Assembly: GCA_025964675.1 (NCBI GenBank)
Contig: JAOPYI010000193.1
Span: 53,029-117,028 of the forward strand
DNA: 64,000 bases
Origin: Sphaerisporangium sp.
GTDB lineage: Bacteria > Actinomycetota > Actinomycetes > Streptosporangiales > Streptosporangiaceae
Direction of reading: 5' to 3'
Shown one piece after another: positions 29,223 through 47,399 of this stretch (its first letter is position 1; each line of letters begins with the position of its first letter). The position numbers and the translations under genes were made by a program. The notes beneath the pieces are model-generated. The model worked only from the letters and a program-made list of their open reading frames with translations, was not told the origin of the DNA and ran no database searches.

Positions 29223-29975
29223 TCAGGCGTCGAAGTCGTACTGAAGTACGTACGACGCGGCATCCATGATCATGGTGTTGAGCTCGACCGCCATGCCTGC
29301 CGAGGCGAAGGCCGACCGGCACACCAGGATCACCGGGGTGCCCGCCGGCAGGTCGAGCCTGGCGGCTTCCTCGGGCGTGGGCATCCTGGCACGGACCTCT
29401 TCGGTGAAGTGCACGGGCGCGTGCCCGAGGTCGCGGAGCCGGGCGTAGACGCCGCCGGGGCCGGTGTCGGCCGCCGTGATCGGTGACCCGGCCACGAGAT
29501 CGGCCGGAAAGTGGGAGGCCGAGAGCTGCACCGGACGGCCGTCGACCGAGTAGCGCCGCCGCCGCACCCAGACCTCGTCGCAGGACAGCACCCGCGCCGC
29601 GTCCTCGGCGGCCGTCTCCAGCGTGATGGTGACGTCGTCCACGGCGTACGGCCGGCCGGTCGTGTCGGAGTCCCAGATGGCCCTGCCGCTGCCCCACTGC
29701 TCCCGTGACAGGCGGCGGGAGCCGTGCCGCCGGATCGGCCTGAACTGCCGTACGTAGACCCCTGACCCGCGCCTGGGCACGGCCACGCCCTCGTTGATGA
29801 GGACGGCCAGCGCCTGCCGCGCCGTGGCGCGGGCTATGCCGTACTCGCTCATGATGGCGTTCTCGCCCGGCAGCCGGTCCCCATCACGGAACTCGCCGGC
29901 CAGGATCGCCTGGCGCAGGCGATCGGCGATCCGGCGATAGATCGGGGGTTCGTGAGGTATAGGGGATTCCATCAC
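29223..29975 (-). CDS. GntR-family regulator with UTRA domain (HutC/KorSA-like)
   Basis: PIYRRIADRLRQAI..G.RLPGE...YGIARATARQAL..L..EG...RRGSGVYV plus UTRA (RRRRYSVDGRPVQL). Confidence 0.92.
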   Translation of the reverse strand: MMESPIPHEPPIYRRIADRLRQAILAGEFRDGDRLPGENAIMSEYGIARATARQALAVLINEGVAVPRRGSGVYVRQFRPIRRHGSRRLSREQWGSGRAIWDSDTTGRPYAVDDVTITLETAAEDAARVLSCDEVWVRRRRYSVDGRPVQLSASHFPADLVAGSPITAADTGPGGVYARLRDLGHAPVHFTEEVRARMPTPEEAARLDLPAGTPVILVCRSAFASAGMAVELNTMIMDAASYVLQYDFDA

Positions 29976-30123: not shown

Positions 30124-30663
30124 TTACTGTGGACCGGTCCCAGCCGGCGCCGGGGTGGCATGCCAGGGCCTGGTGACCAGGCTCGCCAGTACGGCTCCCG
30201 CCGCGTTGAGGAGCACATCGTCGCTCGACGACACGCGTCCGAGGCTCAGGCCGTACTGCAGCGCCTCCACCGTGACCGAGAGGGAGGCGGCGAGTAGGGC
30301 GACGCGCCAGAGGCGGGTGAAGCGCGGCGAGCGGATCGGCAGCAGCGCGCCCAGCGCGGCGAACACCAGAAGGTTGCCTCCGACCTGCGCGAACGCCGCC
30401 CCGGCCGGTCCCTTCACCAGCTCGGCGAGATCGCGCAGGGGTACGAGGCTGACGCCCGGCGCCGCTCCGGGAGTGAGGATCATCCACAGCCAGGGGACGG
30501 TGCCGGCGACGATGAACACGTCGGCGTAAGCCGTGCGAGCCGGGTGCGGACGGCCCCGCCTGGCACGCCGTCCGGCCAGCGGGCGCGCCGCGAGAAGCGC
30601 GGCAGGCAGGCACAGAAATGTGGCGAGGACGATATATCCCCAAAGATGCCATTCGAGCCGCAT
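30124..30663 (-). CDS. VanZ-like membrane protein
   Basis: SLVPLRDL, QVGGNLLVFAALG, VEALQY, GRVSSSDDVLLNAAGA. Confidence 0.88.
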   Translation of the reverse strand: MRLEWHLWGYIVLATFLCLPAALLAARPLAGRRARRGRPHPARTAYADVFIVAGTVPWLWMILTPGAAPGVSLVPLRDLAELVKGPAGAAFAQVGGNLLVFAALGALLPIRSPRFTRLWRVALLAASLSVTVEALQYGLSLGRVSSSDDVLLNAAGAVLASLVTRPWHATPAPAGTGPQ

Positions 30664-30780
30664 GGCGGACATCTTTCCGGATGGCGTTCTGTCGCCGGGA
30701 AGAAATCCCGGCCTGCGCAGGTGACAGGAAGCTGGCTCTGGAGGAAGGCCGCTCGCTCCGCCGCCTGCCCTCGAGGTGTA

Positions 30781-30846
30781 TTGACAGGGGCCTCACCTGG
30801 GACGCAATCTGTTGCGCATGGCGAGTCCCGTTCCGTCATTCACAAC
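30781..30846 (+). promoter_or_regulatory. Promoter with tandem operator upstream of the Rieske genes
   Basis: TTGACA (30781)-N18-CAATCT; GTTGCG-CATGG-CGAGTC (30811-30827) and GTTCCG-TCATT-CACAAC (30830-30846). Confidence 0.7.
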
Positions 30847-30861
30847 TGAGGGGTAGTCGCG

Positions 30862-31221
30862 GTGATTCCAGCGTGTCCTCTCGCGGCTCTGCCGCGGGGC
30901 GAGGCCTACCGGCTCGACATCGATCCACCCGTCGCCGTCTTCCACACCGACGACGGCGAGATCTACGCCGTCGACGACACCTGCACGCACCAGGACGCAT
31001 CACTCTCCGACGGGTGGCTGGAAGGCTGCGAGATCGAGTGCCCCCTGCACTCCAGCCGCTTCGACCTGCGGACCGGCCAGGTGGACAGCCCGCCCGCCAA
31101 GCTCGCCGTGCGTACCCATGGCGTCGTGGTTCAGGACGGCATGGTCTACGTCGTGCCGTCCGGCGCGCCCCCCAACCTCCCGCCTGGCGTCACGGCGGGG
31201 CGACCGAGGAGTGACTCGTGA
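30862..31221 (+). CDS. Rieske [2Fe-2S] ferredoxin
   Basis: DTCTHQDASL...IECPLHSSRFDL (CXH...CXXH). Confidence 0.93.
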   Translation: MIPACPLAALPRGEAYRLDIDPPVAVFHTDDGEIYAVDDTCTHQDASLSDGWLEGCEIECPLHSSRFDLRTGQVDSPPAKLAVRTHGVVVQDGMVYVVPSGAPPNLPPGVTAGRPRSDS

Positions 31222-32327
31222 GCAGCCTGCTCGCCACCCTTTCCGGCGGTCTTTACACCGACGAGAAGGTCTTCGCCCTCGAACAGCAGCGCATCTTCGA
31301 GTCGATGTGGTTCTGCGTGGCCAGGGCAGGCGACCTGCCGAAGCCCGGGGCCTTCCGCACCGTCCAGGTCGGGCGTGAGAGCGTCATCGTGAGCCGGGCC
31401 AGGGACGGCTCGATCCGCGCGTTCCTCAACGTCTGCCGCCACCGCGGCGCCCGTCTGTGCACGGAGGAGTCCGGCGAGGTCCGGCGGGCCTTCCAGTGCG
31501 CCTACCACGCCTGGACGTACGACCTCGAGGGCAAGCTCATCGCGGCGCCGAACCTCACGAAGATGCCCGACGTCGACCGGGTGGAGTACGGGCTGGTCAA
31601 CGTGCACGTGCGCGAGTGGATCGGTTACGTCTGGGTGTGCCTGGCCGACGAGCCTCCCTCCTTCGAGGAGGACGTGCTAGGCGCGGTCGTGACCCGGCTC
31701 GGCGACCTCGCCTCCATCGACAACTACGGCATCGAGAACCTCCAGGTCGGCCGCAGGATCGTCTACGACGTCAAGGCCAACTGGAAGCTGATCGTCGAGA
31801 ACTTCATGGAGTGCTACCACTGCGCGACGATCCACCCCGAGCTGACCGAGGTGCTACCCGAGTTCGCCGACGGGTACGCCGCGCAGTACTTCGTCGGCCA
31901 CGGCGCCGCCTTCGGCAACGGCGTCGAGGGCTTCACCCTCGACGGCTCGCCGGGGGTCGACCGCATCCCGGGCCTCAGCGAGGACCAGGACCGGCGCTAC
32001 TACGCGATCACCATCAAGCCGCAGGTCTTCATCAACCTCGTGCCCGACCACGCGATCGTGCACCGGATGTTCCCCATGGCGGCCGATCGCACGGTCGTGG
32101 AGTGCGACTGGCTTTTCCTGCCGGAGGTCGTGGCGAGCGGCAAGGACCTCGGCCCGTCCGTCGAGCTGTTCCACAAGGTCAACGCGCAGGACTTCGACGC
32201 GTGCGAGCGCTGCCAGCCGGCGATGAGCTCCCGGGCGTACGCGAACGGCGGCGTGCTGGTGCCGAGCGAGCACCACATCGCGGGCTTCCACGACTGGGTC
32301 GCGGGCCGGCTCGGCCTGAGCCGGTGA
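31218..32327 (+). CDS. Rieske oxygenase alpha subunit, probable glycine betaine/N-methyl amine N-demethylase (GbcA/BmoA-like)
   Basis: NVCRHRG...CAYHAW, NWKLIVENFMECYHCATIHPEL, QDFDACE; context of betA and sox genes. Confidence 0.88.
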   Translation: MSSLLATLSGGLYTDEKVFALEQQRIFESMWFCVARAGDLPKPGAFRTVQVGRESVIVSRARDGSIRAFLNVCRHRGARLCTEESGEVRRAFQCAYHAWTYDLEGKLIAAPNLTKMPDVDRVEYGLVNVHVREWIGYVWVCLADEPPSFEEDVLGAVVTRLGDLASIDNYGIENLQVGRRIVYDVKANWKLIVENFMECYHCATIHPELTEVLPEFADGYAAQYFVGHGAAFGNGVEGFTLDGSPGVDRIPGLSEDQDRRYYAITIKPQVFINLVPDHAIVHRMFPMAADRTVVECDWLFLPEVVASGKDLGPSVELFHKVNAQDFDACERCQPAMSSRAYANGGVLVPSEHHIAGFHDWVAGRLGLSR

Positions 32328-32339
32328 CCGGGGAGGCGC

Positions 32340-33110
32340 TCAGCCGGCGAACCCCAGGCGGTGGCTGATGTCGGCGGCGCCGCCGACCAGGACGGGAGCG
32401 AGCTCGTGCATGCGCTTCTCGCTGAAGCGGTAGGCCGGTCCGGAGGCGCTGACGGCCGCCACCACCTCACCGTCGTAGGAGCGGACGGCGGCGGCCACGG
32501 CGTTCAGCCCGATCTCGTACTCCTCCAGCGTGACGGCGTACCCCCGCGTCCTCGCCTCGTCGAGCTGTGGCCGCAGCTCGTCGGCCGAGGTGATCGTCGC
32601 GGGGGTGAAGCGGGCGAGCCCCGCGGCGGACAGGAGCTGGTCGCGGTGCCGGTCGTCGAGGTGGGCCAGCAGGACCTTGCCGCTGGAGGTGGCGTGGAGC
32701 GGGGTGAGCTGCCCGACCCAGTTGTGCGCCGTGACCGCCGACGGGCCGCGCACCTGGTCGAGGTTGACGGCGTAGTGGGAGCGGACGACGGCGATGTTCA
32801 CGGTCTCGCCGAGCTCCCCCGCAAGGCGGCGGCAGACCGGGCGCCCCTGCTGGGTGAGGTCGAGGCGGGAGGCGACACCGCCTGCGAGTCGGATCACCCC
32901 GAAGCCGAGCCGGTACTTCCCCCGGTCCTCGGCCTGCTCGACCAGGTTCCTGGCCTCCAGGGCGCCGAGGAGCCGGAAGGCCGTCGACTTGTGGACGCCG
33001 ATCTCCGCAGCGATCTCGCTGACGCCGGCCTCGCCGCGCTGGGAGAGGATCTCCAGCACGCTGATGGCCCGGTCGACCGACTGCACGCCGGCCGAGGAAT
33101 CGTTGCCCAT
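32340..33110 (-). CDS. IclR-family regulator (copy 1)
   Basis: GVQSVDRAISVL, GVHKSTAFRLL, PLHATSSGKVLLA, RGYAVTLEEYE. Confidence 0.95.
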   Translation of the reverse strand: MGNDSSAGVQSVDRAISVLEILSQRGEAGVSEIAAEIGVHKSTAFRLLGALEARNLVEQAEDRGKYRLGFGVIRLAGGVASRLDLTQQGRPVCRRLAGELGETVNIAVVRSHYAVNLDQVRGPSAVTAHNWVGQLTPLHATSSGKVLLAHLDDRHRDQLLSAAGLARFTPATITSADELRPQLDEARTRGYAVTLEEYEIGLNAVAAAVRSYDGEVVAAVSASGPAYRFSEKRMHELAPVLVGGAADISHRLGFAG

Positions 33111-33179
33111 AGCTCGGGACTGTAGGGGGTCGGCATGGCGGCGTCCATGTGCACGACCGGTTCCAGGTGATCGGCGATG

Positions 33180-33215
33180 GTTGCGGAGAATGCAACGTTG
33201 TGCGTCAATCGCTAC
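33180..33215. promoter_or_regulatory. Tandem operator between IclR1 and betA
   Basis: GTTGCG-GAGAA-TGCAAC (33180-33196) and TGTGCG-TCAAT-CGCTAC (33199-33215). Confidence 0.7.
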
Positions 33216-33271
33216 CAACGAATGCACGCTACCCCTCCGCGTGAGCGAGACGAGAGCGAGACGAGGAAGAA

Positions 33272-34918
33272 ATGTACGACTTCGTCATCGTCGGTGGTGG
33301 ATCGGCCGGGAGCGCTCTGGCGAACCGGCTGTCCGCCGACCCTTCCGTCCGGGTGCTGGTCCTGGAGGCCGGGCGCTCGGACTTCCCGTGGGACGTCTTC
33401 ATCCACATGCCCGCCGCGCTGATGTTCCCGATCGGCAGCCGGTTCTACGACTGGAAGTACGAGTCCGAGCCGGAGCCCCACATGAACGGCCGCCGCATCT
33501 ACCACGCGCGCGGCAAGGTGCTGGGCGGGTCGAGCAGCATCAACGGCATGATCTTCCAGCGTGGCAACCCCCTCGACTACGAGCGCTGGGGCGCCGACCC
33601 CGGCATGGAGACCTGGGACTACGCGCACTGCCTGCCGTACTTCAAGCGCATGGAGAACGCCACGGCTGACCCGGGCACTGCCTTCCGAGGCCACGACGGG
33701 CCTCTCGTACTGGAGCGGGGGCCCGCGTCCGGCCCGCTGTTCGGCGCGTTCTTCGAGGCCGTGCAACAGGCGGGGTACCCCCTGACCGACGACGTCAACG
33801 GCTTCCGCCAGGAGGGCTTCGCGGCGTTCGACCGGAACATCCGCCGGGGGCGCCGCCTGTCGGCCGCCCGCGCGTACCTGCATCCGGTCAAGCGGCGCCC
33901 CAACCTGGAGATCAGGACGCGGGCGTTCGTGACGAAGATCCTCTTCGAGGGGAAGCGTGCCGTCGGCGTCGAGTACAACGGCCGGACCGTTCGGGCCGGC
34001 GAGGTGATCCTGTGCGGCGGGTCGATCAACTCGCCGCAGCTCCTCCAGCTCTCCGGGGTGGGCGACGCCGCGGAGCTGAAGGCCGTGGGCGTCCAGCCCG
34101 TCCACGACCTGCCAGCCGTGGGAGAGAACCTCCAGGATCACCTGGAGGTCTACGTCCAGTACGGGTGCAAGCAGCCGGTGTCGATGCAGCCCGCGATGAA
34201 GTGGCGCAACCGCCCGTGGGTCGGGGCGCAGTGGCTGTTCCTGCGCAGGGGACCGGGGGCCACCAACCACTTCGAGGCGGGCGGCTTCACCCGGAGCAAC
34301 GAGGACGTCGCCTACCCGAACCTGATGTTCCACTTCCTGCCCGTCGCCGTGCGCTACGACGGCTCGGCTCCGGCGGGCGGGCACGGCTACCAGGTGCACA
34401 TCGGCCCGATGTACTCCGACGCGCGAGGCTCGGTGAAGATCCGCAGCGCCGACCCCGGGGTGCGCCCGGCGCTGCGCTTCAACTACCTGTCCACCGACCA
34501 GGACCGCCGCGAATGGGTGGAGGCCGTACGCGTCGCGCGCGACATCCTCAACCAGCCGGCCATGGAAGCCTTCAACGCGGGCGAGCTTTCGCCCGGGCCG
34601 TCGGTTCAGACCGACAAGGAGATCCTCGACTGGGTGGCGCGCGACGGCGAGACCGCCCTGCATCCTTCGTGCACGGCCCGGATGGGCGTGGGCGAGGACT
34701 CCGTGGTGGACCCGGCCAGCATGCGCGTGCACGGGCTCCGGGGTCTACGCGTGGTCGACGCCTCGGTCATGCCGTACGTCACCAACGGCAACATCTACGC
34801 GCCCGTGATGATGGTCGCCGAGAAGTCCGCCGACCTCATCCTCGGCAACACTCCTCTGCCGCCGGAGCGGGTCGAGTTCTACCGGCATCCAGGACGGTCC
34901 TCCGCGATCACCGAGTAG
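33272..34918 (+). CDS. betA: Choline dehydrogenase (GMC oxidoreductase)
   Basis: [54 protein letters not shown]. Confidence 0.95.
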
Positions 34919-34947
34919 TCGGTCAGACCTCTGAATAGGGTTGTGCC

Positions 34948-35763
34948 ATGGGCAACGAGGTGGAGCGTGAGGGCGGTGGCGTGCAGTCCGTCGACCGCGC
35001 GCTGTCGGTTCTCAAACTGCTTGCCCGCCACGGCGAGCTCGGCGTCAGCGAGCTGGCCGCCGAGCTCGGTGTGCACCGCTCCACGGCGTTCCGGCTCGTC
35101 GCCACCCTGGAGAACCACGACCTCGTCCACCAGAACGGCGATCGCGGGCGCTACCGGCTCGGGGTCGGCGTGCTGCGGCTCGCGGGCGCGACCACCGCGA
35201 GGCTCGACGTCGTGCAGGAGGGGCGCCCGGTCGGCAGCCGGCTCGCCGCGGAGGTCGGCGAGACCGTCAACATCGCCATCCTCGACCGCGACGAGGCGCT
35301 CTACCTCGACCAGATGGCCGGCACCTCGGCTCTCCAGGCCCACAACTGGACGGGCCGGCGCATCGCGCTGCACGCCACCTCCAACGGCAAGGTGCTGCTC
35401 GCCCATGCTCCCGAAGGGCGGTTCGAGGAGGTGACGGCCGGGCGGCTCGCCCGGTACACAGACCGCACCGTCACCGACGCCGCCCGGCTCCGCGAGGAGC
35501 TCGACGCCGTGCGCGAGCGCGGCTACGCCACGGCCGTCGACGAGCTGGAGGTGGGCCTGACCGCCGTCGCCGCGCCGGTCTTCGGCGCCGACGGCAGGGT
35601 GGTCGCCTCGCTCAGCGCCTCGGGGCCGACGTTCCGGCTTGCCGCAGAGCGGCTTCCCGCCGTGGCGGATCAGGTCATGGCCGCCGCCGTGGAGATTTCT
35701 TCACGTCTCGGGTGGTACGGCCGTGCGCGTTTCGGTCAGCAAGGGAAACGCGACAAGTCTTGA
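34948..35763 (+). CDS. IclR-family regulator (copy 2)
   Basis: GVQSVDRALSVL, GVHRSTAFRLV, ALHATSNGKVLLA; clearly paralogous to copy 1. Confidence 0.95.
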   Translation: MGNEVEREGGGVQSVDRALSVLKLLARHGELGVSELAAELGVHRSTAFRLVATLENHDLVHQNGDRGRYRLGVGVLRLAGATTARLDVVQEGRPVGSRLAAEVGETVNIAILDRDEALYLDQMAGTSALQAHNWTGRRIALHATSNGKVLLAHAPEGRFEEVTAGRLARYTDRTVTDAARLREELDAVRERGYATAVDELEVGLTAVAAPVFGADGRVVASLSASGPTFRLAAERLPAVADQVMAAAVEISSRLGWYGRARFGQQGKRDKS

Positions 35764-35825
35764 CGGGGCTCACGCCAGGGGTCGATTCTGTTCCTCGTTA
35801 AGCATTGTGGTGCGTGATACGCAAC
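35760..35825 (+). promoter_or_regulatory. Promoter with operator upstream of the betaine ABC transporter
   Basis: TTGACG (35760)-N18-GATTCT; weak site at 35790-35806 and GGTGCG-TGATA-CGCAAC (35809-35825). Confidence 0.65.
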
Positions 35826-35909
35826 TGGAGAGGTCCGAGGCAGATTCCTGCCCCGGTGGCAACTGGAGGGTGTGACCAGCCTCCATCCCCCTCGAACCGC
35901 GAGGTGACC

Positions 35910-36971
35910 ATGACGGCGACGTCGCCGGCCGAGCTCTCGCAGCCCTCCACGGCCGAGGAGCCTGTGATCCTCGACGTGCGCGGCCTGTGGAAGGTCTTCG
36001 GTCCCCGGGCCGACCGGGTGGCCGGCACGCCACTCGCCGAGCTCTCCCCGGCCGAGCTGAAGGAGCGCACCGGCTGCGTCGCCGCCGTGCGCGACGCGTC
36101 GTTCTCCGTACGGCGTGGTGAGGTGTTCGTCGTCATGGGCCTGTCGGGCTCCGGCAAGTCGACCCTCGTCCGCTGCCTGACGCGGCTGGTCGAGCCGACC
36201 GCGGGCGAGGTGCTGCTGGACGGGCAGGACATACGCGGGGCCGGCGACAAGCAGCTACGCGAGCTGCGCCGCCACCGGTTCGCGATGGTGTTCCAGCACT
36301 TCGGCCTACTGCCGCACCGGAGGGTGCTGGACAACATCGCCTACGGCCTCGAGATCCAGGGCATGAACAAGGAGTCCCGCTACCGGCGGTCCACCGAGAT
36401 GCTCGACCTCGTCGGGCTGTCCGGATACGCCGACTCCTACCCCGACCAGCTCTCCGGCGGCATGCAGCAGCGGGTGGGCCTGGCCCGCGCCCTGGCGGTC
36501 GACCCCGAGGTGCTGTTCTTCGACGAGCCCTTCTCGGCCCTCGACCCGCTGATCCGCCGTGACATGCAGAACGAGGTAATCCGGCTGCACCACGAGGTCG
36601 GCAAGACGATGATCTTCATCACGCACGACCTCAGCGAGGCGCTGAAGCTCGGTGACCGCATCCTGGTCATGCGCGACGGCCGGATCGTCCAGACCGGGAC
36701 CCCGGACGAGGTGGTGGGCGCCCCGGCCGACGACTACGTACGGGACTTCGTGCGCGACGTCTCCCGCTCCCACGTCCTCACCCTCCGGTGGATCATGAGG
36801 CCGCCCGTCGCCGACGACGTGCTGGACGGGCCGGAGCTGGGGCCCGACGTCGTCATCAAGGACGCCGTGCACACCGTCCTGCACGCCGACCGTCCCGTGC
36901 GGGTCGTGTCGGACGGCGAGCTTCTCGGCGTGGTCGGAAGCGCCGAGATCCTCGCGGTGATCGCGGAATGA
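35910..36971 (+). CDS. proV: Glycine betaine/choline ABC transporter ATP-binding protein
   Basis: [43 protein letters not shown]. Confidence 0.93.
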
Positions 36972-36999
36972 CGGCGACCTTCGAAGGGGTGACCGTCAC

Positions 37000-38979
37000 G
37001 TGACCGCCACCGTGGCGGTGCGCCGGCCCGCATGGTCACGCCCGTACCTGCTCGGCGGGATCCTCGCCGCCTGGGTGCTGCTGTGGATCGCCTTCCGCGG
37101 CCAGGCCACCCTGCCGCTCGGCGGCGCTGAGCTCACCCCGCTGCACGAGCGGATCAGCCAGGCCGCGAACGCCATCGACGACAGCCGGAACTCCAATCCC
37201 TTCTTCCTGTACTTCATCAACTACATCCGCCTCTTCATCGACGAGTTCGTGACGTTGGTCCAGTCGATGATCAGCCGGCCGTCCTTCGGCCGCCCGGTCC
37301 CCGTGATCGGCTGGCTGGGCGTGGTCGGCATCGCCACGGCCGTCGCCTGGCTCTACGGGAACCTCAGGGTCGCGCTGCTGACCCTGGCCGGGTTCGTCTC
37401 CTTCGGGCTGCTCGGCCTGTGGCAGGAGAGCATGGACACGCTGGCGCTGACGCTGTCGGCCGTCGTGCTGTCGCTCGCCGTCGGCATCCCGCTCGGCGTC
37501 TGGGCGGGGCTGAGCGACCGGTTCAACCGGCTGGTCAACCCGGTGCTCGACTTCATGCAGACGATGCCGACGTTCGTGTACCTGGCGCCGCTCACGCTGT
37601 TCTTCCTCATCGGCCCGGCGAGCGCCACCGTGGCGACGATGATCTACGCGATCCCGCCCGCGATCCGCATCACCGCGCACGCGATCAGGGAGGTGCCGGG
37701 GGCGACCGTGGAGGCGGGCACCTCGCTCGGGTCGACTCCGTGGCAGCTCCTCAGCAAGGTGCGGCTCCCGCTGGCCAAGCGGACCATCGTCGTCGGCGTC
37801 AACCAGACCATCATGGCCGCGCTTTCCATGGCGACGATCGCCGCGCTCATCGACGCGCCCGGGCTCGGCAAGACCGTGCTCAAGGCCCTGGAGACGCTCG
37901 ACGTCGGCACCTCGTTCAACGCGGGTCTGGCCATCGTGATCATGGCCATCGTGCTCGACCGGGTCACCTCGGCGGCCGGTCGCCGTGTCGAGACGGCACA
38001 CCGTGCCGGACGCGCCCGGGGGCCGCTCTGGCGGCGCGTCCAGGTGGCCGTGGTCCTCGCCGTCATGGCGGTGCTCGTGTACCTGTCGTACGTCTACGTG
38101 TGGGCCGCGGAGTTCCCCGGCGAGGCGGACGCGGGCTCGTACGTCCGCAGGGCGGCCGACGCGGCGAGCCAGTGGGCGCAGACCAACCTGTACACCTACA
38201 CCAACGGCTTCAAGAACCTTGTCACCTACGGCCTGCTCAACCCGTTCGAAGCGGTGCTCACCGGGTCGCCGTGGTGGCTCGTGCTGCTGGTGGTGACCGT
38301 GACCGCGCTCGTGCTCGCCACCGTACGGGTCGCCGTAGTGTGCGCCGTGTGCCTCGCCCTTCTCGTGGTGCTCGGGCTCTGGCAGGACAGCATGGTGACG
38401 CTGGCGGCGACGCTCGTGGCCACCGTGCTCGTGATGGCGCTGGGCATCGCGGTAGGGGTGTGGATGGGGCGCGACGACCGTGCCGACCGGGTGATACGCC
38501 CGGTGCTGGACGCCGGCCAGACCATGCCCGCCTTCGTGTACCTCGTACCGATCCTCGGCCTGTTCGGCGCGACCCGGTTCACGGCCATCATCGCGGCCGT
38601 CGTCTACGCCGCGCCCGTGGCCACCAAGCTCGTCGCGGACGGCATCAGGGGCGTCTCCGCGAGCGCGGTCGAGGCCGCCACGGCCGCCGGGTCGAGCACG
38701 TGGCAGACCATCTCCAAGGTGCAGGTGCCGATGGCGCGCAGCGCGGTCACCCTCGCCGCGAGCCAGGGGCTGTGCTACGTGCTGGCCATGGTCGTGGTGG
38801 GCGGCCTGGTGGGCGCGGGCGCGCTCGGCTACGACGTGGTTTCTGGCTTCTCCCAGCTCCAGCTACGCGGCAAAGGACTGGCCGCGGGCCTCGCGATCGT
38901 GGTGCTCGGCACCATGCTGGCCGCGCTCACCAAGGCGGCGGCGAGGCGCGCCGACGCCGCCGCCCACGGGCGGAGTTGA
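37000..38979 (+). CDS. proW: Glycine betaine/choline ABC permease with two fused ProW domains
   Basis: PVLDFMQTMPTFVYL and PVLDAGQTMPAFVYL, each followed by an EAA-like loop. Confidence 0.92.
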   Translation: MTATVAVRRPAWSRPYLLGGILAAWVLLWIAFRGQATLPLGGAELTPLHERISQAANAIDDSRNSNPFFLYFINYIRLFIDEFVTLVQSMISRPSFGRPVPVIGWLGVVGIATAVAWLYGNLRVALLTLAGFVSFGLLGLWQESMDTLALTLSAVVLSLAVGIPLGVWAGLSDRFNRLVNPVLDFMQTMPTFVYLAPLTLFFLIGPASATVATMIYAIPPAIRITAHAIREVPGATVEAGTSLGSTPWQLLSKVRLPLAKRTIVVGVNQTIMAALSMATIAALIDAPGLGKTVLKALETLDVGTSFNAGLAIVIMAIVLDRVTSAAGRRVETAHRAGRARGPLWRRVQVAVVLAVMAVLVYLSYVYVWAAEFPGEADAGSYVRRAADAASQWAQTNLYTYTNGFKNLVTYGLLNPFEAVLTGSPWWLVLLVVTVTALVLATVRVAVVCAVCLALLVVLGLWQDSMVTLAATLVATVLVMALGIAVGVWMGRDDRADRVIRPVLDAGQTMPAFVYLVPILGLFGATRFTAIIAAVVYAAPVATKLVADGIRGVSASAVEAATAAGSSTWQTISKVQVPMARSAVTLAASQGLCYVLAMVVVGGLVGAGALGYDVVSGFSQLQLRGKGLAAGLAIVVLGTMLAALTKAAARRADAAAHGRS

Positions 38980-39061
38980 TCGTGCGGGAGAGCATCGGGG
39001 ATTTCACAAACGCCTATGCACATCCGCCGTCTTCGGCGGCTTTCGATTCAGGAGGACCTTT

Positions 39062-40048
39062 GTGAGAGTTTCGAGGATCGCGCGGCCCCGGGCCGTCGTG
39101 CTCGTGGCGGCCGTCGGCCTCCTCGTCTCCGCGTGCGGTGGCGCGAAGGTGGGAGACAGCCCGTCCGGGTCGGGAGCGGCAGCACCCGCGAAGAAGGCAT
39201 GCGGCGCCGTCAACATCGCGATCAACCCCTGGGTCGGGTACGAGGCCAACGCGGCGGTCATCGCGTACGTCGCCGAGAAGGAACTGGGCTGCCAGGTCAC
39301 GAAGAAGGACCTCAAGGAGGAGGTCGCCTGGCAGGGGTTCGCGACCGGTGAGGTCGACGCGGTCGTGGAGAACTGGGGCCACGCCGACCTGAAGAAGAAG
39401 TACATCGAGGACCAGAAAGTCGCGGTAGAGCTCGGCACGACCGGGAACAAGGGCGTCATCGGCTGGTACGTGCCGCCGTGGATGGCCGAGAAGTACCCCG
39501 ACATCACCGACTGGAAGAACCTCGACAAGTACGCCGGCCTGTTCAAGACCTCCGAGTCCGGCGGCAAGGGGCAGATCCTCGACGGCGACCCGTCCTTCGT
39601 CACCAACGACGCCGCCCTGGTGAAGAACCTCAACCTGAACTACAAGGTGGTGTACGCCGGGAGTGAGGCGGCGCTGATCACCGGGTTCCGGCAGGCCGAG
39701 GCCCAGAAGAAGCCGATGATCGGATACTTCTACGAGCCGCAGTGGTTCCTGTCCGAGATCAAGCTGGTCAAGGTCAACCTGCCCGCGTACACCGATGGGT
39801 GCGACACCGACGCCGCGAAGGTGGCGTGCGACTACCCGCCGTACGCGCTGGACAAGATCGTGAGCAAGAAGTTCGCCGACTCGGGCAGCCCGGCGTACGG
39901 CCTGGTCAAGAACTTCACGTGGACCAACGACGACCAGAACCTCGTGGCGAAGTACATCTCCGAGGACAAGATGACGGCCGATGACGCCGCCAAGAAGTGG
40001 GTCACCGACAACCCCGACAAGGTGAAGGCCTGGCTTCCCACGAGCTGA
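39062..40048 (+). CDS. proX: Glycine betaine ABC substrate-binding lipoprotein
   Basis: AGGAGG RBS, lipobox LVSAC, VVENW, IGWYVPPW, FYEPQW. Confidence 0.92.
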   Translation: MRVSRIARPRAVVLVAAVGLLVSACGGAKVGDSPSGSGAAAPAKKACGAVNIAINPWVGYEANAAVIAYVAEKELGCQVTKKDLKEEVAWQGFATGEVDAVVENWGHADLKKKYIEDQKVAVELGTTGNKGVIGWYVPPWMAEKYPDITDWKNLDKYAGLFKTSESGGKGQILDGDPSFVTNDAALVKNLNLNYKVVYAGSEAALITGFRQAEAQKKPMIGYFYEPQWFLSEIKLVKVNLPAYTDGCDTDAAKVACDYPPYALDKIVSKKFADSGSPAYGLVKNFTWTNDDQNLVAKYISEDKMTADDAAKKWVTDNPDKVKAWLPTS

Positions 40049-40061
40049 GACGCACCGCGAC

Positions 40062-40096
40062 ACGCCGCGCCCGCACATCGTCCGCGGGCGCGGCGT
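40062..40096 (+). terminator. Hairpin after the ABC operon
   Basis: ACGCCGCGCCCGC-N9-GCGGGCGCGGCGT. Confidence 0.7.
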
Positions 40097-40168
40097 CGCC
40101 ATGCCCCGACCCGCTTTCTCCAGCCTCCTCCACACACGTGGTGGTCGAGGTCGTGACCCGTCACGGTC

Positions 40169-40234
40169 TTGACACCCCCTCCCCGGCGGGTCACGCTTGT
40201 TGCGGCAAGCGCACTACGGTTCATCATGCGCAAC
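40169..40234 (+). promoter_or_regulatory. Promoter with tandem operator upstream of the dmg-sox operon
   Basis: TTGACA (40169)-N17-CACGCT; GTTGCG-GCAAG-CGCACT (40199-40215) and GGTTCA-TCATG-CGCAAC (40218-40234). Confidence 0.72.
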
Positions 40235-40245
40235 GGAGGTGGCGG

Positions 40246-42663
40246 ATGGCAGGCCCCCGGGTCGTCGTCATCGGAGCGGGTGTGGTGGGCGCGGCGCTCG
40301 CCGAGGAGCTCTCGGCCAGAGGCTGGGACGACATCACCGTGGTCGACCAGGGCGAGGTCCCGGCGCCCGGCGGATCGTCCACACACGCGCCCGGCCTGGT
40401 CTTCCAGACCAACCCGTCCAAGACCATGACCGAGATGGCCCGCTACACCGTCGAGAAGCTCATGGCGCTCGAATGCTTCCTGCAGGTCGGCGGCTTGGAG
40501 GTCGCCACGACCCCCGAGAGGTACGCGGAGCTGCGCAGGCGGCACGGCTGGGCCACCGCGTGGGGCGTCGAGGCACGGCTGCTGACCACCGAGGAGTGCG
40601 TGGAACGCCACTCGCTGCTCGACCCCGACCGGGTGCTCGGCGGCCTGTACGTCCCGACCGACGGCATCGCCAAGGCCGTACGCGCCGTCGAGGCGCAGCT
40701 CCGGCTCGCCCGCGAGCGCGGCGTGCGCGTACTCGACCGCCACGAGGTGCTGGACATCCGCGTCGAGGACGATCGCGTGACCGCCGTCGTCACCGACCAG
40801 GGGGAGATCCCCGCCGACGTCGTCGTGTGCTGCGCCGGCATCTGGGGGCCCAAGGTGGCCGGCATGGTGGGGATGGCGCTCCCGCTCACGCCGCTCGCCC
40901 ACCAGCTCGCCTGGACCGGCCCGGTGCCCGCGCTGAGCGGGCAGTCGGAGGAGGCGACCCACCCGATCCTGCGCCACCAGGACGCCGACCTGTACTACCG
41001 CGAGCGGTACGACCGGCTGGCCGTCGGCTACTACGGTCACCGCCCGATGCCGGTGCGGCCCGAGGACATCCTTTCGGTGGACGCGGCCGAGGTGATGCCG
41101 TCGGTGACGCCGTTCACCCCCGGCGACTTCGCCGACGCGTGGAACGAGACCCTCTCCCTGCTGCCCCCGGCCAGGGACGCCAAGGTCGAGGAGGGCATCA
41201 ACGGACTCTTCTCGTTCACCACCGACAACATGCCTCTGCTCGGCGAGTCTTCCGAGGTCAAGGGGTTCTGGGTCGCCGAGGCGGTGTGGGTGACCCACTC
41301 GGCGGGCGTGGCGCGGGCCATGGCGGAGTGGCTGGTCGACGGGCACTGCTCGTCGTTCGACCTGCACGAGTGTGACGTGAACCGCTTCGAGCCGCACCAG
41401 CTCTCCCCGGAGTACGTCCTCACGCGCGACTGCCAGAACTTCGTCGAGGTCTACGACATCATCCATCCGCTCCAGCCGCCGGAGAACCTCCGCCCGCTGC
41501 GGGTGAGCCCCTTCCACCCGCGCCAGCGCGAGCTGGACGCCTTCCCCCTGGAGGCGTCCGGGTGGGAACGCCCCCAGTGGTACGGCGCAAACGCCGGGCT
41601 GGCCGACGGCCGTGACGTCCCCTCGCCCGGCGATTGGGCGGCGCGCTACTGGTCGCCCATCGTCGGCGCCGAGGCGCAGGCGTCCCGGGAGGGCGTCGCG
41701 CTGTACGACATGACGGCGCTCAAGCGGCTCGAGGTCAGCGGGCCGGGCGCGGCGGCGTTCCTGCAACGGGTCTCGACCGGTGACGTGGAGAAGTCAGTCG
41801 GCTCGGTGACGTACTGCCTGCTGCTCGACGACGACGGCGGCATCCGCAGCGACATCACGGTCGCCCGGCTCGGCCGCGACCTGTTCCAGATCGGGGCCAA
41901 CGGCAACCTCGACCTCGACTGGCTGGCCCGGCGCAGCCCCCCGTCGGTGTCGGTCAGGGACATCACGCCCGGCACCTGCTGTGTCGGCGTCTGGGGCCCG
42001 CGCGCCCGTGACCTCGTCGCGCCGCTCACCGAGGACGACTTCTCGGCCCAGGGCTTCCGCTACTTCCGCGCGAAGCGGGCGTACATCGGATCTGTGCCGG
42101 TCACCGCCCTGCGCCTCTCGTACATCGGCGAGCTCGGCTGGGAGCTCTACACGACCGCGGACATGGGTCTCAAACTGTGGGACACGCTGTGGGAGGCCGG
42201 GCAGGCGTACGGGATCGTCGCCGGTGGGCGCGGCGCGTTCAACAGCCTGCGCCTGGAGAAGGGCTACCGCTCCTTCGGCACCGACATGACCTACGAGCAC
42301 GACCCCTACGAGGCGGGCCTCGGGTTCGCCGTGAAGATGGACAAGGGCGACTTCACCGGCAGGGCCGCGCTGCAGGAGCGCAGAGCCTCGGTCAGCCGCC
42401 GCCTGACCTGCCTGACGATCGACGACCCCTCCGGCGTGGTGATGGGCAAGGAGCCGGTCTACGACGGTGACGCCTGCGTGGGGTATGTCACGAGTGCCGC
42501 GTACGGCTACACCGTCGGCAAGGCCATCGCCTATGCCTGGCTGCCCGCCGGGCTGTCGGCCCCGGGGCAGGTGGTCCACATCGGCTACTTCGGCGAGCGA
42601 GTCGCCGCCGTCGTGGCGGAGGAACCGCTCTTCGACCCCGCGATGAAGCGGCTGCGCGCATGA
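40246..42663 (+). CDS. GcvT-family FAD-dependent dimethylglycine oxidase/dehydrogenase
   Basis: [42 protein letters not shown]-terminal folate-binding GcvT domain (LRLEKGYR). Confidence 0.92.
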
Positions 42664-42691: not shown

Positions 42692-43894
42692 ATGACCGAC
42701 CCGGACCGGCTGTGGGACAGCCCCGAGCCCGAGAGCTCCTACGACGTCGTGATCGTCGGTGGGGGAGGGCACGGCATCGCCACCGCCTACTACCTGGCGA
42801 AGAACCACGGGATCACCAACGTCGCCGTGCTGGAGAAGGGCTGGCTGGCCGGCGGCAACATGGCGCGCAACACCACCATCATCCGGTCCAACTACCTGTG
42901 GGACGAGAGCGCGGGCATCTACGAGCACGCGCTGAAGCTGTGGGAGGGGCTGGAGGAAGACCTCGGCTACGACGTGCTCTTCAGCCAGCGCGGCGTGCTC
43001 AACCTCGCCCACAGCCTCCAGGACGTGCGTGACAGCGTGCGGCGCGTCAACGCCAACCGGCTCAACGGCGTGGACGCCGAATGGCTGGACCCGGCGCAGG
43101 TCAAGGAGGTCTGCCCGATCGTCGACATCAGGCAGGACTCCCGTTACCCGGTGCTCGGCGCCACCTACCAGCCCCGTGCGGGCATCGCCAAGCACGACTA
43201 CGTCGCCTGGGGGTACGCCAGGGCGGCCTCCGCGATGGGCGTCCACTTCATCGAGCACTGCGAGGTCACCGGCATCGAGGTGGTGGACGGCCGGGTGCGA
43301 GCCGTGCACACCACACGCGGACGGATCGCGGCGGGCCGTGTGGCGCTCTCGGCGGCAGGCCACTCGTCGGTCGTCGCCGGGATGGCCGGGCTGCGGCTGC
43401 CGGTGCAGAGCCACCCGCTCCAGGCACTGGTCTCCGAGCTCCTCGAACCCGTACACCCGACCGTCGTCATGTCCAACGCCGTGCACGTCTACGTCAGCCA
43501 GGCGCACAAGGGGGAGCTGGTCATGGGCGCGGGCATCGACACGTACAACTCCTATCGCCAGCGCGGGGCCTTCCACATCATCGAGCAGCAGATGGCGGCG
43601 GCGCTGGAGCTGTTCCCGATCTTCGCCCGCGCGCACGTCCTGCGTACCTGGGGCGGGGTGGTCGACGTCACGCCCGACGCGTCGCCGATCGTCGGGCTCA
43701 CCCCGGTCGGCGGCATGTACGTCAACTGCGGCTGGGGCACGGGCGGGTTCAAGGCGACTCCCGGCGTCGGATGGTGCTACGCCCACACGATCGCTCACGA
43801 CGAGCCGCATCCGCTCAACGCGCCGTTCACCCTCGAACGATTCACCACCGGCGCGCTCGTGGACGAGCACGGCGCGGCCGCCGTGGCCCACTGA
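42692..43894 (+). CDS. soxB: Sarcosine oxidase beta subunit
   Basis: [53 protein letters not shown] end. Confidence 0.97.
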
Positions 43895-43907
43895 AGGAGC
43901 CCGACCG

Positions 43908-44210
43908 ATGCTGCTGATCCCCTGTCCGTGGTGCGGGCCGCGCGACGAGGCCGAGTTCCGGTACGGCGGGCAGGCCCACGTCGCGTACCCAGGCGACCCG
44001 GGCGCCCTCACCGACGAGGAGTGGGCGCACTACCTCTTCTTCCGCGACAACCCCAAGGGCCCGTTCGAGGAACGGTGGAACCACACCTCCGGCTGCCGCC
44101 GCTGGTTCAACCTCACCCGGGACACGGCCACCAACGAGATATGGCCCACCACCTCGGCCGGGGCCCGGCCAGGGACCGGGACCGTGGCGACCGGCGGGGG
44201 TTCGCGATGA
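43908..44210 (+). CDS. soxD: Sarcosine oxidase delta subunit
   Basis: MLLIPCPWCGPRDEAEF...W.HTSGCRRWFN. Confidence 0.96.
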   Translation: MLLIPCPWCGPRDEAEFRYGGQAHVAYPGDPGALTDEEWAHYLFFRDNPKGPFEERWNHTSGCRRWFNLTRDTATNEIWPTTSAGARPGTGTVATGGGSR

Positions 44211-46900
44211 CGGGCCGCCGTGCCGGGTACGCGGGCGAGGTGCTGCGGTTCACCTTCGACGGCCGGGCCTATGAGGGATACCGAGGCGACACGCTGGCCG
44301 CCGCCCTGCTTGCCAACGGCGTGCGGCGGGTCGGGACCAGCGTCACGCTCGGCCGCCCGCGCGGGGTCTTCGGCGCGTGGACCGAGGAGCCGAACGCCGT
44401 CGTCCAGATCGAGCGGCCCTTCCCCGAGCCCATGGTCCAGGCCACCACGATCCCGCTGTACGAGGGGCTCGTCGCATCCAGCGTCGCAGGCCGGGGAAGG
44501 CTGTCGCCGGAGCCCGATCCGGCTCGCTACGACGCCACGCACGCGCACTGCGACGTCCTCGTGGTGGGGGCGGGCCCCGCGGGGCTTTCCGCGGCGCGGG
44601 CCGCCGCGCGTACCGGCGCCAGGGTCATCCTCGCCGACGACCGGCCCTCGCCCGGAGGCGGCCTGCCGGACACCGCGGAGACCGTCGACGGCCGCCCCGG
44701 CGCCGAATGGGCGCTCGCCGTGGCCGCCGAACTGGAAGCCTTGCCTGACGTGCGAGTGCTGTGCCGTACGAGCGTCATCGGGTACTACGACCACAACTAC
44801 CTCGTCGCCGTCGAGCGCCGGGGCGAGGACGCGGTGACACGGGAGCGGGTCTGGCGCATCCGGGCCCGCAGGGTCGTGCTCGCGACGGGGGCGCACGAGC
44901 GGCCGATCGCCTTCGCGGGCAACGACCTTCCCGGGGTGATGCTGGCGTCCGCCGCACGGGCCTACGCGAACCGGTACGGCGTGCTGCCCGGCCGCCGGGC
45001 GGTCGTCTTCACCACGGGCGACAGCGCGTACGACGCCGCCCACGACCTCGCCGAGGCGGGTGTGGAGATCGTGGAGATCGCCGACGCCCGGAAGGGCGGG
45101 CTCGTCACGGGTGTCGCCGGCGGCGCGGAGGACCAGGGTGTGCGCGCGGTCGTGATCGGCTCCCGCGAGGTCGAAGCCGACCTCCTCCTGGTCTCCGGCG
45201 GCTGGAACCCCCTCGTCAACCTGTTCAGCCAGTCCGGAGGCGAACTCCGCTACGACGAGACCCTCACCACGTTCGTTCCCGGACATTCCGCTCAGGCGGT
45301 CGAGGTGGCGGGGGCGGCGCGGGGGGTGTTCACTCTGGCGGGGTGCCTGGCCGACGGCGAGGCCGCCGGGTCCGGCTCGCCACTGCCCGCGCTTCCATCG
45401 GAGGAGACCGGCACCCGTTCACAGGACCTGTGGGTCGTCCCCTCCGACGACTACACGAGCCACTTCGTGGACCTCCAGCGGGACGTCACCGTGGCCGACC
45501 TCCAGCGGGCCACCGGGGCAGGGCTCCGCTCGGTCGAGCACATCAAGCGGTACACCACGGCCGGCACGGCGCACGACCAGGGCAAGACCTCCGGCGTGCT
45601 GACCAGCGCCGTCGTCGCCCGGCTGCTCGGGGTCGGCATCGCCGAGCTCGGCACGACCACGTTCCGGGCGCCGTACGTCCCGGTGTCCTTCGCCGCCCTG
45701 GCGGGACGCGATCGGGGCGCCCTGCACGACCCCGTACGGGTCACCGCGACGCACGACTGGCACGCGTCCCACGGCGCCCTCTTCGAGAACGTCGGACAGT
45801 GGAAAAGAGCCTGGTACTACCCGAGACCGGGGGAGGACATGGAGGCCGCGGTCCTGCGCGAGTGCCGGGCCGTACGGCAGGCCACGGGCGCCATGGACGC
45901 ATCCACCCTGGGAAAGATCGACGTCCAGGGCCCCGACGCGGCCGAGCTGCTCGACCGCCTCTACACCAACATGATGAGCACGCTGAAGGTGGGCGCGATC
46001 CGCTACGGCCTGATGTGCAGGCCCGACGGGATGGTCTTCGACGACGGCACCGTCATCCGCCTGGCACCGGACCGCTTCCTCGTGACCACGACCACGGGCA
46101 ACGCGGCGGCCGTACTCGACTGGATGGAGGAATGGCTCCAGACCGAGTGGCCCGACCTGCGAGCCCGCTGCACCTCGGTCACCGAGCAGTGGGCGACGGT
46201 AGCGATGGCCGGCCCCGGCTCACGTGACGTGCTGGGCGGGCTCGCTCCTGAGCTGGCGGTCGACGTGGAGAGCTTCCCGTTCATGACCTGGCGGGACACT
46301 GAAGTGGCGGGCATTTCGGCACGGGTCTGCCGGATCAGCTTCTCCGGCGAGCTGGCCTACGAGATCAACGTGAGCTGGTGGCACGGGCCCGCGCTGTGGA
46401 AGGCGATCCTGGCGACCGGTGCCGTCACGCCGTACGGAACCGAGACCATGCACGTCCTCCGGGCCGAGAAGGGGTACCCCATCGTCGGCCAGGACACCGA
46501 TGGCACGGTCACCCCCGCGGACCTCGGTATGGACTGGATCGTCTCCAAGAAGAAGGCCGACTTCATCGGCAGACGTTCCTACGCCCGCGCCGACACCGCC
46601 CGGCCCGACCGCCGTCACCTGGTAGGGCTGCTGCCCGAGGACCCGGAGGTGCTGGTCCCCGAGGGCACCCAGCTCGTCGCCTGCGACCGGCTTCCCGAGC
46701 CCCCGGTACCCATGCTGGGCTACGTGACCTCCAGCTACCGCAGCGCGGCGCTGGGCCGCACCTTCGCCCTCGCCCTTGTGAGCGGCGGCAGGGACCGGAT
46801 CGGCCAGCGCCTGTACGCGCCCATCGGCGACGCCCTGCTACCGGTGACGGTCACCCACCACGTCCTCTACGACCCCGAGGGAACCCGCCGCGATGGCTGA
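44207..46900 (+). CDS. soxA: Sarcosine oxidase alpha subunit
   Basis: GDTLAAALLANG, VVGAGPAGL, HIKRYTTAG..DQGKTS, GQWKRAWYYP, LRAEKGY; ATG at 44207 overlaps the soxD stop. Confidence 0.96.
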   Translation: MTGRRAGYAGEVLRFTFDGRAYEGYRGDTLAAALLANGVRRVGTSVTLGRPRGVFGAWTEEPNAVVQIERPFPEPMVQATTIPLYEGLVASSVAGRGRLSPEPDPARYDATHAHCDVLVVGAGPAGLSAARAAARTGARVILADDRPSPGGGLPDTAETVDGRPGAEWALAVAAELEALPDVRVLCRTSVIGYYDHNYLVAVERRGEDAVTRERVWRIRARRVVLATGAHERPIAFAGNDLPGVMLASAARAYANRYGVLPGRRAVVFTTGDSAYDAAHDLAEAGVEIVEIADARKGGLVTGVAGGAEDQGVRAVVIGSREVEADLLLVSGGWNPLVNLFSQSGGELRYDETLTTFVPGHSAQAVEVAGAARGVFTLAGCLADGEAAGSGSPLPALPSEETGTRSQDLWVVPSDDYTSHFVDLQRDVTVADLQRATGAGLRSVEHIKRYTTAGTAHDQGKTSGVLTSAVVARLLGVGIAELGTTTFRAPYVPVSFAALAGRDRGALHDPVRVTATHDWHASHGALFENVGQWKRAWYYPRPGEDMEAAVLRECRAVRQATGAMDASTLGKIDVQGPDAAELLDRLYTNMMSTLKVGAIRYGLMCRPDGMVFDDGTVIRLAPDRFLVTTTTGNAAAVLDWMEEWLQTEWPDLRARCTSVTEQWATVAMAGPGSRDVLGGLAPELAVDVESFPFMTWRDTEVAGISARVCRISFSGELAYEINVSWWHGPALWKAILATGAVTPYGTETMHVLRAEKGYPIVGQDTDGTVTPADLGMDWIVSKKKADFIGRRSYARADTARPDRRHLVGLLPEDPEVLVPEGTQLVACDRLPEPPVPMLGYVTSSYRSAALGRTFALALVSGGRDRIGQRLYAPIGDALLPVTVTHHVLYDPEGTRRDG

Positions 46901-47399
46901 CCGACTGAGCCCGCTGGCCGGGTTCGAGGGCATTTCGGACGCTCGGCTCCGCGTGCGGGAGATCCCGTTCCTGCGGCAGACCAACGTCCGGGTGGATCCC
47001 GGGCGGCTTCCGTCCTCGTTCCCGGTGCGGTTGCCGGTCTCGCCGGGGACGTGGCTGAGCTCCGGCGAGACCGACGTGCTGTGGCTCGGGCCGGACGAAT
47101 GGCTGGTGATCGGAGATGTCGACCTTCCACGCTCCGAGGACGTCGCCGTGACCGATGTCTCGGCGCAGCGTACGACCCTGCTGGTGGCCGGGCCGGGCGC
47201 ACGCGACCTGCTGGCGCACGGATGCGCCATCGACCTGCACCCATCGGTCTTCGGCCCCGGCCGTTGCGCGCAGACCACGCTGGCACGGGCACAGGTCATC
47301 CTGATCGCCCGCGAGCACGACGAACTCTGGGTACTCGTCCGCGCGTCCTTCGCCCGGTACCTCGCAGCCTGGATCACCGACGCGGCGGTCGACTACTGA
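46893..47399 (+). CDS. soxG: Sarcosine oxidase gamma subunit
   Basis: LWLGPDEWLV, DVSAQRT, GC.IDLHP.VF, VRASFARYL. Confidence 0.95.
   Translation: MADRLSPLAGFEGISDARLRVREIPFLRQTNVRVDPGRLPSSFPVRLPVSPGTWLSSGETDVLWLGPDEWLVIGDVDLPRSEDVAVTDVSAQRTTLLVAGPGARDLLAHGCAIDLHPSVFGPGRCAQTTLARAQVILIAREHDELWVLVRASFARYLAAWITDAAVDY

Follow-up and report, generated by a model that had tools for sequence, protein, structure and literature searches.

Tandem palindromes predicted to be 36-bp operators of IclR-type regulators in a choline-to-glycine catabolic island of Streptosporangiaceae

Introduction

Catabolism of choline by way of glycine betaine, dimethylglycine (DMG), and sarcosine to glycine is controlled in Proteobacteria by BetI, a TetR-family protein, and by GbdR and SouR, which are AraC-family activators. 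Here we describe a 64-kb stretch of DNA from a Streptosporangiaceae genome (positions 53029–117028 of contig C87; the genome is 7.77 Mb with 68.8% GC), hereafter called the window, in which genes for the same pathway form an island with two genes for IclR-family proteins, iclR1 and iclR2, and with four tandem pairs of palindromes that we propose to be the operators of these proteins. BetI, GbdR, and SouR belong to other protein families and have no sequence or motif relationship with the system considered here, and Pfam found only IclR-type and generic winged helix-turn-helix (HTH) domains, and no TetR_N or AraC HTH, in IclR1 and IclR2. In the searchable literature, whose coverage mostly leaves out subscription journals, we found no experiments on a betaine regulator of the IclR type and no experimentally characterised regulator of choline/betaine catabolism in Actinomycetota.

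The closest described system is a computational prediction. Suvorova and Gelfand (2021, Front Microbiol 12:675815, PMC8222616) reported, for IclR transcription factors (TFs) of 94 orthologous groups, binding to tandem palindromes 18–22 nt apart (mainly 19–21), a spacing taken as consistent with tetramers; their type-1 IclR consensus is GKTYCRYW3-4RYGRAMC. One group, ROP_14880 (Table S1 of PMC8222616), has sites of the type TGTTGCGCA-T-TGCGCAACA and members in Rhodococcus, Mycobacterium, Saccharomonospora, Saccharopolyspora, Geodermatophilus, Streptomyces avermitilis and Streptomyces scabiei, Stackebrandtia, Rubrobacter, Arthrobacter, and Streptosporangium roseum. Pairs with 19-nt spacing were predicted in, among others, Streptomyces, Mycobacterium, Rhodococcus, and Geodermatophilus and in S. 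roseum, where they are located at the Sros_3853/3854 divergon and at Sros_3855 and where a site at −8 overlaps the start of the regulator gene. That work is purely computational and holds the group in supplementary Tables S1 and S2; the main text mentions neither choline, betaine, or sarcosine nor the name of the group, which is broad and has a heterogeneous listed regulog content that includes, for example, dipeptide ABC transporters.

A mechanistic precedent is the tetramer-on-two-sites model for TtgV (Lu et al. 2010), as it is cited in PMC8222616, in which a dimer of dimers is bound to neighbouring pseudo-palindromes, with about two helical turns between them, so that part of the promoter is covered and repression lasts until effector binding. 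The same arrangement is what we propose, from sequence, for the locus described here; going by that citation, the TtgV operator sequence and the pathway under its control are unrelated to ours. Among named NCBIfam families, IclR1 and IclR2 score best against BhcR (NF045644; 196–200 bits), with which they share the IclR fold; the score is below the 350-bit cut-off, the gene context differs, and the two proteins are not BhcR equivalogs. We consider it likely that the paired palindromes are 36-bp operators for the IclR regulators of the island and that they mediate repression that is released by a metabolite.

Results

The palindromes are distinguished by their tandem geometry

An earlier reading of the window, made from the sequence only, had noticed a 17-bp palindrome with the consensus GTTGCG-N5-CGCAAC in four upstream regions, always as two copies with starts exactly 19 bp apart and with one weak copy, at 35790. 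All eight 17-mers are present in the sequence, the 19-bp offset is exact within each pair, and the copy at 35790 is indeed weak, with 5 mismatches to the consensus compared with 1–3 in the other seven (Table 1). Taken singly, matches to the consensus are no commoner in the window than chance would give: there are 39 with 3 or fewer mismatches where 53 are expected, and genome-wide there are 4210 such sites. Pairs in which both members have 3 or fewer mismatches at the 19-bp spacing occur three times in the genome, and all three are inside the betaine island (window 30.8–47.4 kb). Because single sites are no commoner than chance, the regulon can be defined by pair geometry and not by single sites. 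We then scored the genome with a weight matrix built solely from orthologous sites of other genomes, with this genome left out. The four pairs of the island are the top four of the 7.77-Mb genome, at 27.2–31.3 bits, with 17.7 bits for the pair that ranks fifth. When the single sites of the window are ranked, the first seven are all inside the island as well.

Elsewhere in the genome, the single high-scoring sites C10:15778 and C12:30507 were set aside as chance occurrences, being inside open reading frames (ORFs). Three more isolated single sites, perfect or high-scoring, are at C181:25770, C14:3240, and C15:9883; they are located at the border of called ORFs or beyond them, and none has a partner at 19 bp.

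Operators and IclR genes occur together

To follow the operators within the family, we compared 20-kb orthologous regions from 20 related genomes. The earlier reading had named conservation in orthologues as a test of its proposal, and the motif is kept: at least 13 same-genus loci retain the four pairs, whereas the flanking intergenic sequence varies. Seven same-genus loci carry iclR1 alone, without iclR2, and still keep all four operators, from which we take IclR1 to be sufficient. The same-genus genomes that lack both IclR genes (G003, G008, G010, G013, and G015) also lack the orthologous DMG oxidase; their best matches to this enzyme are paralogues of 39% identity, which carry no motif. 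The betaine island is, judged by this comparison, an accessory unit within the genus in which regulator and operators travel together. In one further same-genus locus (L035, G018:C8), iclR1 and iclR2 are in head-to-head orientation: betA is missing from between them, catabolic genes are absent nearby, and the genome has three homologues.

A wider set consisted of 80 loci encoding an IclR homologue, 1.2 Mb in all, drawn from one-genome-per-species collections of Actinomycetota and including Streptosporangium, Microbispora, Nocardioides, Aeromicrobium, Marmoricola, Rhodococcus rhodnii, Dactylosporangium, Kineosporia, and many metagenome-assembled genomes. At least one tandem pair was found within 8 kb in 79 of these loci. 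When spacings from 14 to 29 bp were counted, 162 pairs were at 19 bp, 32 at 20 bp, and 0–8 at each other spacing. The gene behind the pair is iclR itself at 67 sites, mostly with purU in divergent orientation (65 sites), a betB-like aldehyde dehydrogenase (ALDH) of 489 aa at 58 sites, and a DMG oxidase or dehydrogenase at 35 sites; the others are betA, the ABC importer, the Rieske gene, formate-tetrahydrofolate ligase (fhs), a transporter of the BCCT type, and a class-III alcohol (formaldehyde) dehydrogenase. By their predicted functions, these genes form one pathway. Because pairs precede the class-III alcohol dehydrogenase, fhs, and the BCCT transporter, the regulon appears to reach one-carbon (C1) detoxification in some lineages. 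In Microbispora (L053:203 and L054:1424), the class-III zinc alcohol dehydrogenase behind the tandem operator is a 361-aa protein and likely a mycothiol-dependent formaldehyde dehydrogenase.

IclR1 and IclR2 have nearly the same DNA-binding surface

IclR1 matches the PF09339 winged HTH (1.4e-14) and the PF01614 effector-binding domain (7.6e-44), and IclR2 matches the same two domains (2.4e-16 and 9.2e-43); the closest solved structures are the IclR-family entries 1MKM, 3R4K, and 2G7U. The recognition helix GVH(K/R)STAFRL and the HTH around it hardly vary among IclR1, IclR2, and homologues with overall identities as low as ~55%. Because the recognition helices of IclR1 and IclR2 are one residue apart (K to R), IclR2 very probably binds the same predicted sites. 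A maximum-likelihood tree separates the proteins into two clades, each with support of 100/99. The IclR1 clade holds Streptosporangiaceae and a long-branch pair (the second Rhodococcus rhodnii copy and the G025 copy), and the IclR2 clade is widespread in Actinomycetota, the closest named relatives of IclR2 being those of Streptosporangium (76–79%) and Microbispora (71–72%). The presence of both copies in Microbispora and Streptosporangium indicates that the iclR1/iclR2 duplication is old. Overall, the invariance of the HTH, the co-occurrence of pairs and IclR genes in the wide set, and the absence of the orthologous DMG oxidase from IclR-less genomes support the proposal that a shared operator serves an IclR-regulated choline/betaine/DMG/sarcosine island.

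The operators belong to a TF group predicted before

Compared with ROP_14880, the DNA-binding domain of IclR1 (GVQSVDRAISVLEILS...GVSEIAAEIGVHKSTAFRLLGALEA) matches that of Sros_3853 (VQSVDRAISILEILSAGVSEVAVEIGVHKSTAFRLLGALES), and both are of the VQSVDRA...GVHKSTAFRL... type, so that IclR1 falls within the group by sequence. As in that group, the sites have the form TGTTGCGCA-T-TGCGCAACA in tandem, with 18–19 nt between centres, upstream of the TF gene and its neighbours, and sites at −8/−10 overlap the start of the regulator gene, as at iclR2 (see below). Operator 2 is homologous to the pair in the Sros_3853/3854 divergon and operator 4 to the pair at Sros_3855. When the half-site is set against GKTYCRY, six of seven positions fit, and position 4 is G in 74–79% of sites and not Y. 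The sequence-only reading had presented the system and its fixed double-operator geometry as undescribed, and this does not hold: PMC8222616 already predicts the motif, the TF group, and the 19-nt tandem layout, so that the motif has an assigned regulator, by computation. In spirit, this is one of the outcomes that the earlier reading had named as refuting its proposal.

The pairs lie where a repressor would act

As listed in Table 1, TTGAC(A/G) begins exactly 30 bp upstream of three pairs, those of the Rieske, ABC transporter, and dmg-sox promoters, and this is conserved in the same-genus loci. In Streptosporangiaceae, a spacer of 18 nt (or 17 nt) and a hexamer bring the start of the operator to 0–1 bp past the −10 position. 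In the Nocardioides-type loci, TTGAC is at −44 (ALDH) or about −37 (DMG oxidase), and the operator again begins a few bases past the −10. The operator ends 8–30 nt before the start codon, adjoining the Shine-Dalgarno sequence (SD). The repressor-type position that had been claimed for these three promoters is supported, since the pair starts right after the −10 position and behind a conserved −35. The promoters themselves stand only in part: the −35 elements are strong and conserved, but the −10 hexamers CAATCT, GATTCT, and CACGCT keep only A2 and T6.

IclR-family proteins are typically tetramers. In the mechanism that we favour, for which we infer the binding protein, the sign of regulation, and the ligand, one IclR dimer would occupy each palindrome, and two dimers 19 bp (about two helical turns) apart would form a tetramer. 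At the three catabolic and transport promoters (Rieske, ABC, and dmg-sox), this tetramer would cover the DNA from the −10 to about +35, reaching the ribosome-binding site, and would repress by blocking open-complex formation or promoter escape. The IclR proteins would also occupy the control region shared by iclR1 and betA. A metabolite of the pathway, with choline, glycine betaine, DMG, and sarcosine as candidates, would release the repressor.

Several points weigh against this mechanism. A strict sigma-70 scan of 30600–40400 returned zero promoters, and, because the −10 hexamers are weak, the overlap of the operators with +1 rests on the conserved −35 and its spacing. No convincing candidate for the betA promoter was seen in the iclR1-betA divergon, and, relative to iclR1, operator 2 would sit ~30 bp ahead of the predicted −35, a position that does not point to one mode of control. 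Members of the IclR family can be activators or dual regulators. BhcR, the nearest named family, reportedly senses glyoxylate, and the ligand proposed here is only a candidate.

The alternative that survives best keeps the same proteins on the same sites but has them act as activators or dual regulators, so that the weak −10 hexamers would need a bound tetramer together with an inducer. The family provides examples in PobR, PcaU, and PcaR, which are activating or dual members, and activation would suit both the poor −10 hexamers, with no consensus sigma-70 promoter in the scan, and the iclR1-betA divergon, where the pair is upstream of the predicted iclR1 −35. At the other three promoters, however, and in the Nocardioides-type ALDH and DMG oxidase loci, the pair is downstream of the conserved −35 and its spacer and abuts the SD, a position that is incompatible with class I or class II activation. 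We consider activation unlikely.

The sequence of the pairs fits one DNA-bound assembly

Among 153 distinct 36-mers, the outer half-sites are strongly conserved: the six positions of the 5′ GTTGCG are kept in 97, 95, 92, 74, 98, and 85% and those of the 3′ CGCAAC in 82, 99, 96, 97, 100, and 99%. The inner half-sites are degenerate. Strong outer and degenerate inner half-sites fit a single assembly that reads the whole 36 bp, as expected of cooperative tetramer binding.

The same repeats could act as RNA, forming two hairpins (GUUGCG-loop-CGCAAC) in the 5′-untranslated region before the SD and controlling translation or mRNA stability. The sites would be transcribed if the predicted promoters are right, and they are always beside the SD. 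Base pairing, however, has left no mark on the 36-mers: arm changes usually affect one side only (16–79 per arm pair), most of them break pairing, and double changes are no commoner than expected from independence, so that there is no covariation. Further, the four leaders fold no better than shuffled sequences (z −0.46 to −1.29), with minimum free energy structures that lack the two hairpins, Rfam gave no match, and the sites are shared by divergent genes on opposite strands. We therefore rejected an RNA element as highly improbable. Just as improbable, and likewise rejected, is binding by a different regulator such as the neighbouring GntR/HutC-type protein, whose gene adjoins the Rieske operon in all same-genus loci but has a homologue within 8 kb in none of the 80 motif-bearing loci, all of which have an IclR gene, while the motif agrees with the published prediction for this IclR group (PMC8222616) and, at six of seven half-site positions, with the type-1 IclR consensus.

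A fifth, single site overlaps the start of iclR2

In addition to the four pairs, the window has a single operator, GTTGTGCCATGGGCAAC, that the earlier reading had missed (Table 1). It overlaps the start of iclR2: the ATG at 34948 falls between the two arms of the palindrome, and the Gly-Asn of the MGN/MSN N termini is encoded by the right half-site. A −10-like TAGGGT (34936–34941) overlaps the first two bases of the site. The site is conserved in distant genomes (L036–L039, L053, L054, L069, and L075). A −10 of the form TANNGT (TAGGGT, TAGTGT, TACCGT, or TACGGT) is located 6 nt before the start codon of iclR2-type genes in distant taxa, from Streptosporangiaceae to Nocardioides (these eight loci together with L057, L059, and L060), which implies that the mRNA of iclR2-type genes is leaderless. 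The operator holds the start codon here and in Microbispora and Kineosporia, and it covers the −35 region in Nocardioides. These features suggest that iclR2 is leaderless and autorepressed, that is, that it would additionally repress itself through a single site containing its own start codon.

Gene content of the island

The genes of the island, assigned by Pfam and NCBIfam, are listed in Table 1 and, going by these assignments, jointly encode the route from choline through glycine betaine, DMG, and sarcosine to glycine. The Rieske pair (30862–32327) is a probable glycine betaine N-demethylating monooxygenase. Its operon includes the Rieske-type ferredoxin partner and no reductase gene; betaine and another quaternary amine are both candidate substrates. 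The Rieske promoter is separated from the GntR gene by a conserved VanZ-like gene (182 aa; 30124–30672, minus strand; 74–85% amino acid identity within the genus), which places the Rieske control region between divergent genes. At iclR1, the N terminus from the likely start aligns with IclR2 and orthologues, and GTCCAT and ACTGTAGG are conserved at the predicted promoter in the same-genus comparison.

No betB orthologue was found in this genome, in which the best match to the ALDH behind the Streptosporangium subroseum operator has 42–43% identity. In S. subroseum and in Nocardioides-type loci, an operator homologous to site 3 precedes a betB-like ALDH of 485–489 aa; in the genus studied here, the ABC ATPase directly follows operator 3, with no ALDH between. 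For the betaine aldehyde step, either BetA does both oxidations or an unlinked ALDH is used.

Table 1. Predicted operators, promoter elements, and genes of the betaine island. Positions are those of the window; mismatches to GTTGCG-N5-CGCAAC are given for the left and right 17-mer.
Feature	Position	Strand	Remarks
Tandem operator 1	30811–30846 (17-mers at 30811, 30830)		between −10 and SD of Rieske operon; mismatches 3, 2; pair 31.3 bits, genome rank 1
Tandem operator 2	33180–33215 (17-mers at 33180, 33199)		iclR1-betA divergent region; mismatches 1, 3; pair 27.9 bits
Tandem operator 3	35790–35825 (17-mers at 35790, 35809)		ABC promoter; left weak, right strong; mismatches 5, 1; pair 27.2 bits
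Tandem operator 4	40199–40234 (17-mers at 40199, 40218)		dmg-sox; SD GGAGG directly after, ATG 40246; mismatches 2, 3; pair 29.9 bits
Single operator	34940–34956		12.1 bits; seventh-best single site of the window
−35 TTGACA, Rieske operon promoter	30781–30786	+	−10-like CAATCT 30805–30810; same offset in same-genus orthologues
−35 TTGACG, ABC transporter promoter	35760–35765	+	−10-like GATTCT 35784–35789
−35 TTGACA, dmg-sox promoter	40169–40174	+	−10-like CACGCT 40192–40197
iclR1 predicted promoter	−35 TGGACG 33147–33142; −10 TACAGT 33124–33119	−	N17 spacer
GntR/HutC-type gene	29223–29975	−	neighbour of Rieske operon
Rieske [2Fe-2S] ferredoxin	30862–31221	+	Pfam
Rieske oxygenase alpha subunit, GbcA-related	31218–32327	+	Pfam; NCBIfam GbcA 236 bits, below the cut-off of 670
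iclR1	32340–33110	−	PF09339 and PF01614; likely start ATG 33110 (MGND...)
betA, choline dehydrogenase (GMC oxidoreductase)	33272–34918	+	TIGR01810, 826 bits, above cut-off
iclR2, paralogue of iclR1 (55% identity)	34948–35763	+	Pfam, alignment, tree
Betaine/choline-type ABC importer	~35911–40048	+	Pfam; weak NCBIfam match to choline substrate-binding protein
ABC ATPase	35911–36971	+	probable start ATG 35911
ABC fused permease	37000–38979	+
ABC substrate-binding protein	39062–40048	+	weak NCBIfam match to choline substrate-binding protein
Dimethylglycine oxidase (DAO-GcvT fusion)	40246–42663	+	Pfam/NCBIfam
soxB	42692–43894	+
soxD/A	43895–46900 (stop to stop)	+
soxG	46848–47399	+

Discussion

The motif, its TF assignment, and the double-operator geometry are already predicted in PMC8222616. 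What is new here is the link to a whole choline-to-glycine island, the operators of the Rieske and ABC transporter genes, the promoter geometry, the asymmetry of the half-sites, and the pair of paralogous regulators. The added value is thus in annotation and experimental design and not in a new mechanism, as the motif, the 19-nt tandem geometry, and tetramer binding have been published.

The paralogues also raise a more tentative idea, which we consider possible but doubtful: IclR1 and IclR2 may act on a common set of 36-bp operators and respond to separate intermediates, for example one to choline or betaine and the other to DMG or sarcosine. Their recognition helices are nearly identical, yet their ligand domains bring the overall identity down to 55%. 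Were this so, two metabolites would jointly switch the island on by AND/OR logic, perhaps with tetramers of mixed composition, and an IclR-type betaine regulon would for the first time be open to experiment; this regulon is widespread in Actinomycetota and has purU and C1 genes attached to it.

Under the reading that we favour, in which IclR tetramers repress from paired palindromes, the locus offers a testable regulatory map for actinobacterial choline/glycine-betaine catabolism, with five predicted operators, four operons, and two regulators. From Streptosporangiaceae through to Nocardioides, the design of IclR protein and operator stays the same, and in Nocardioides it takes in purU and other one-carbon genes as well.

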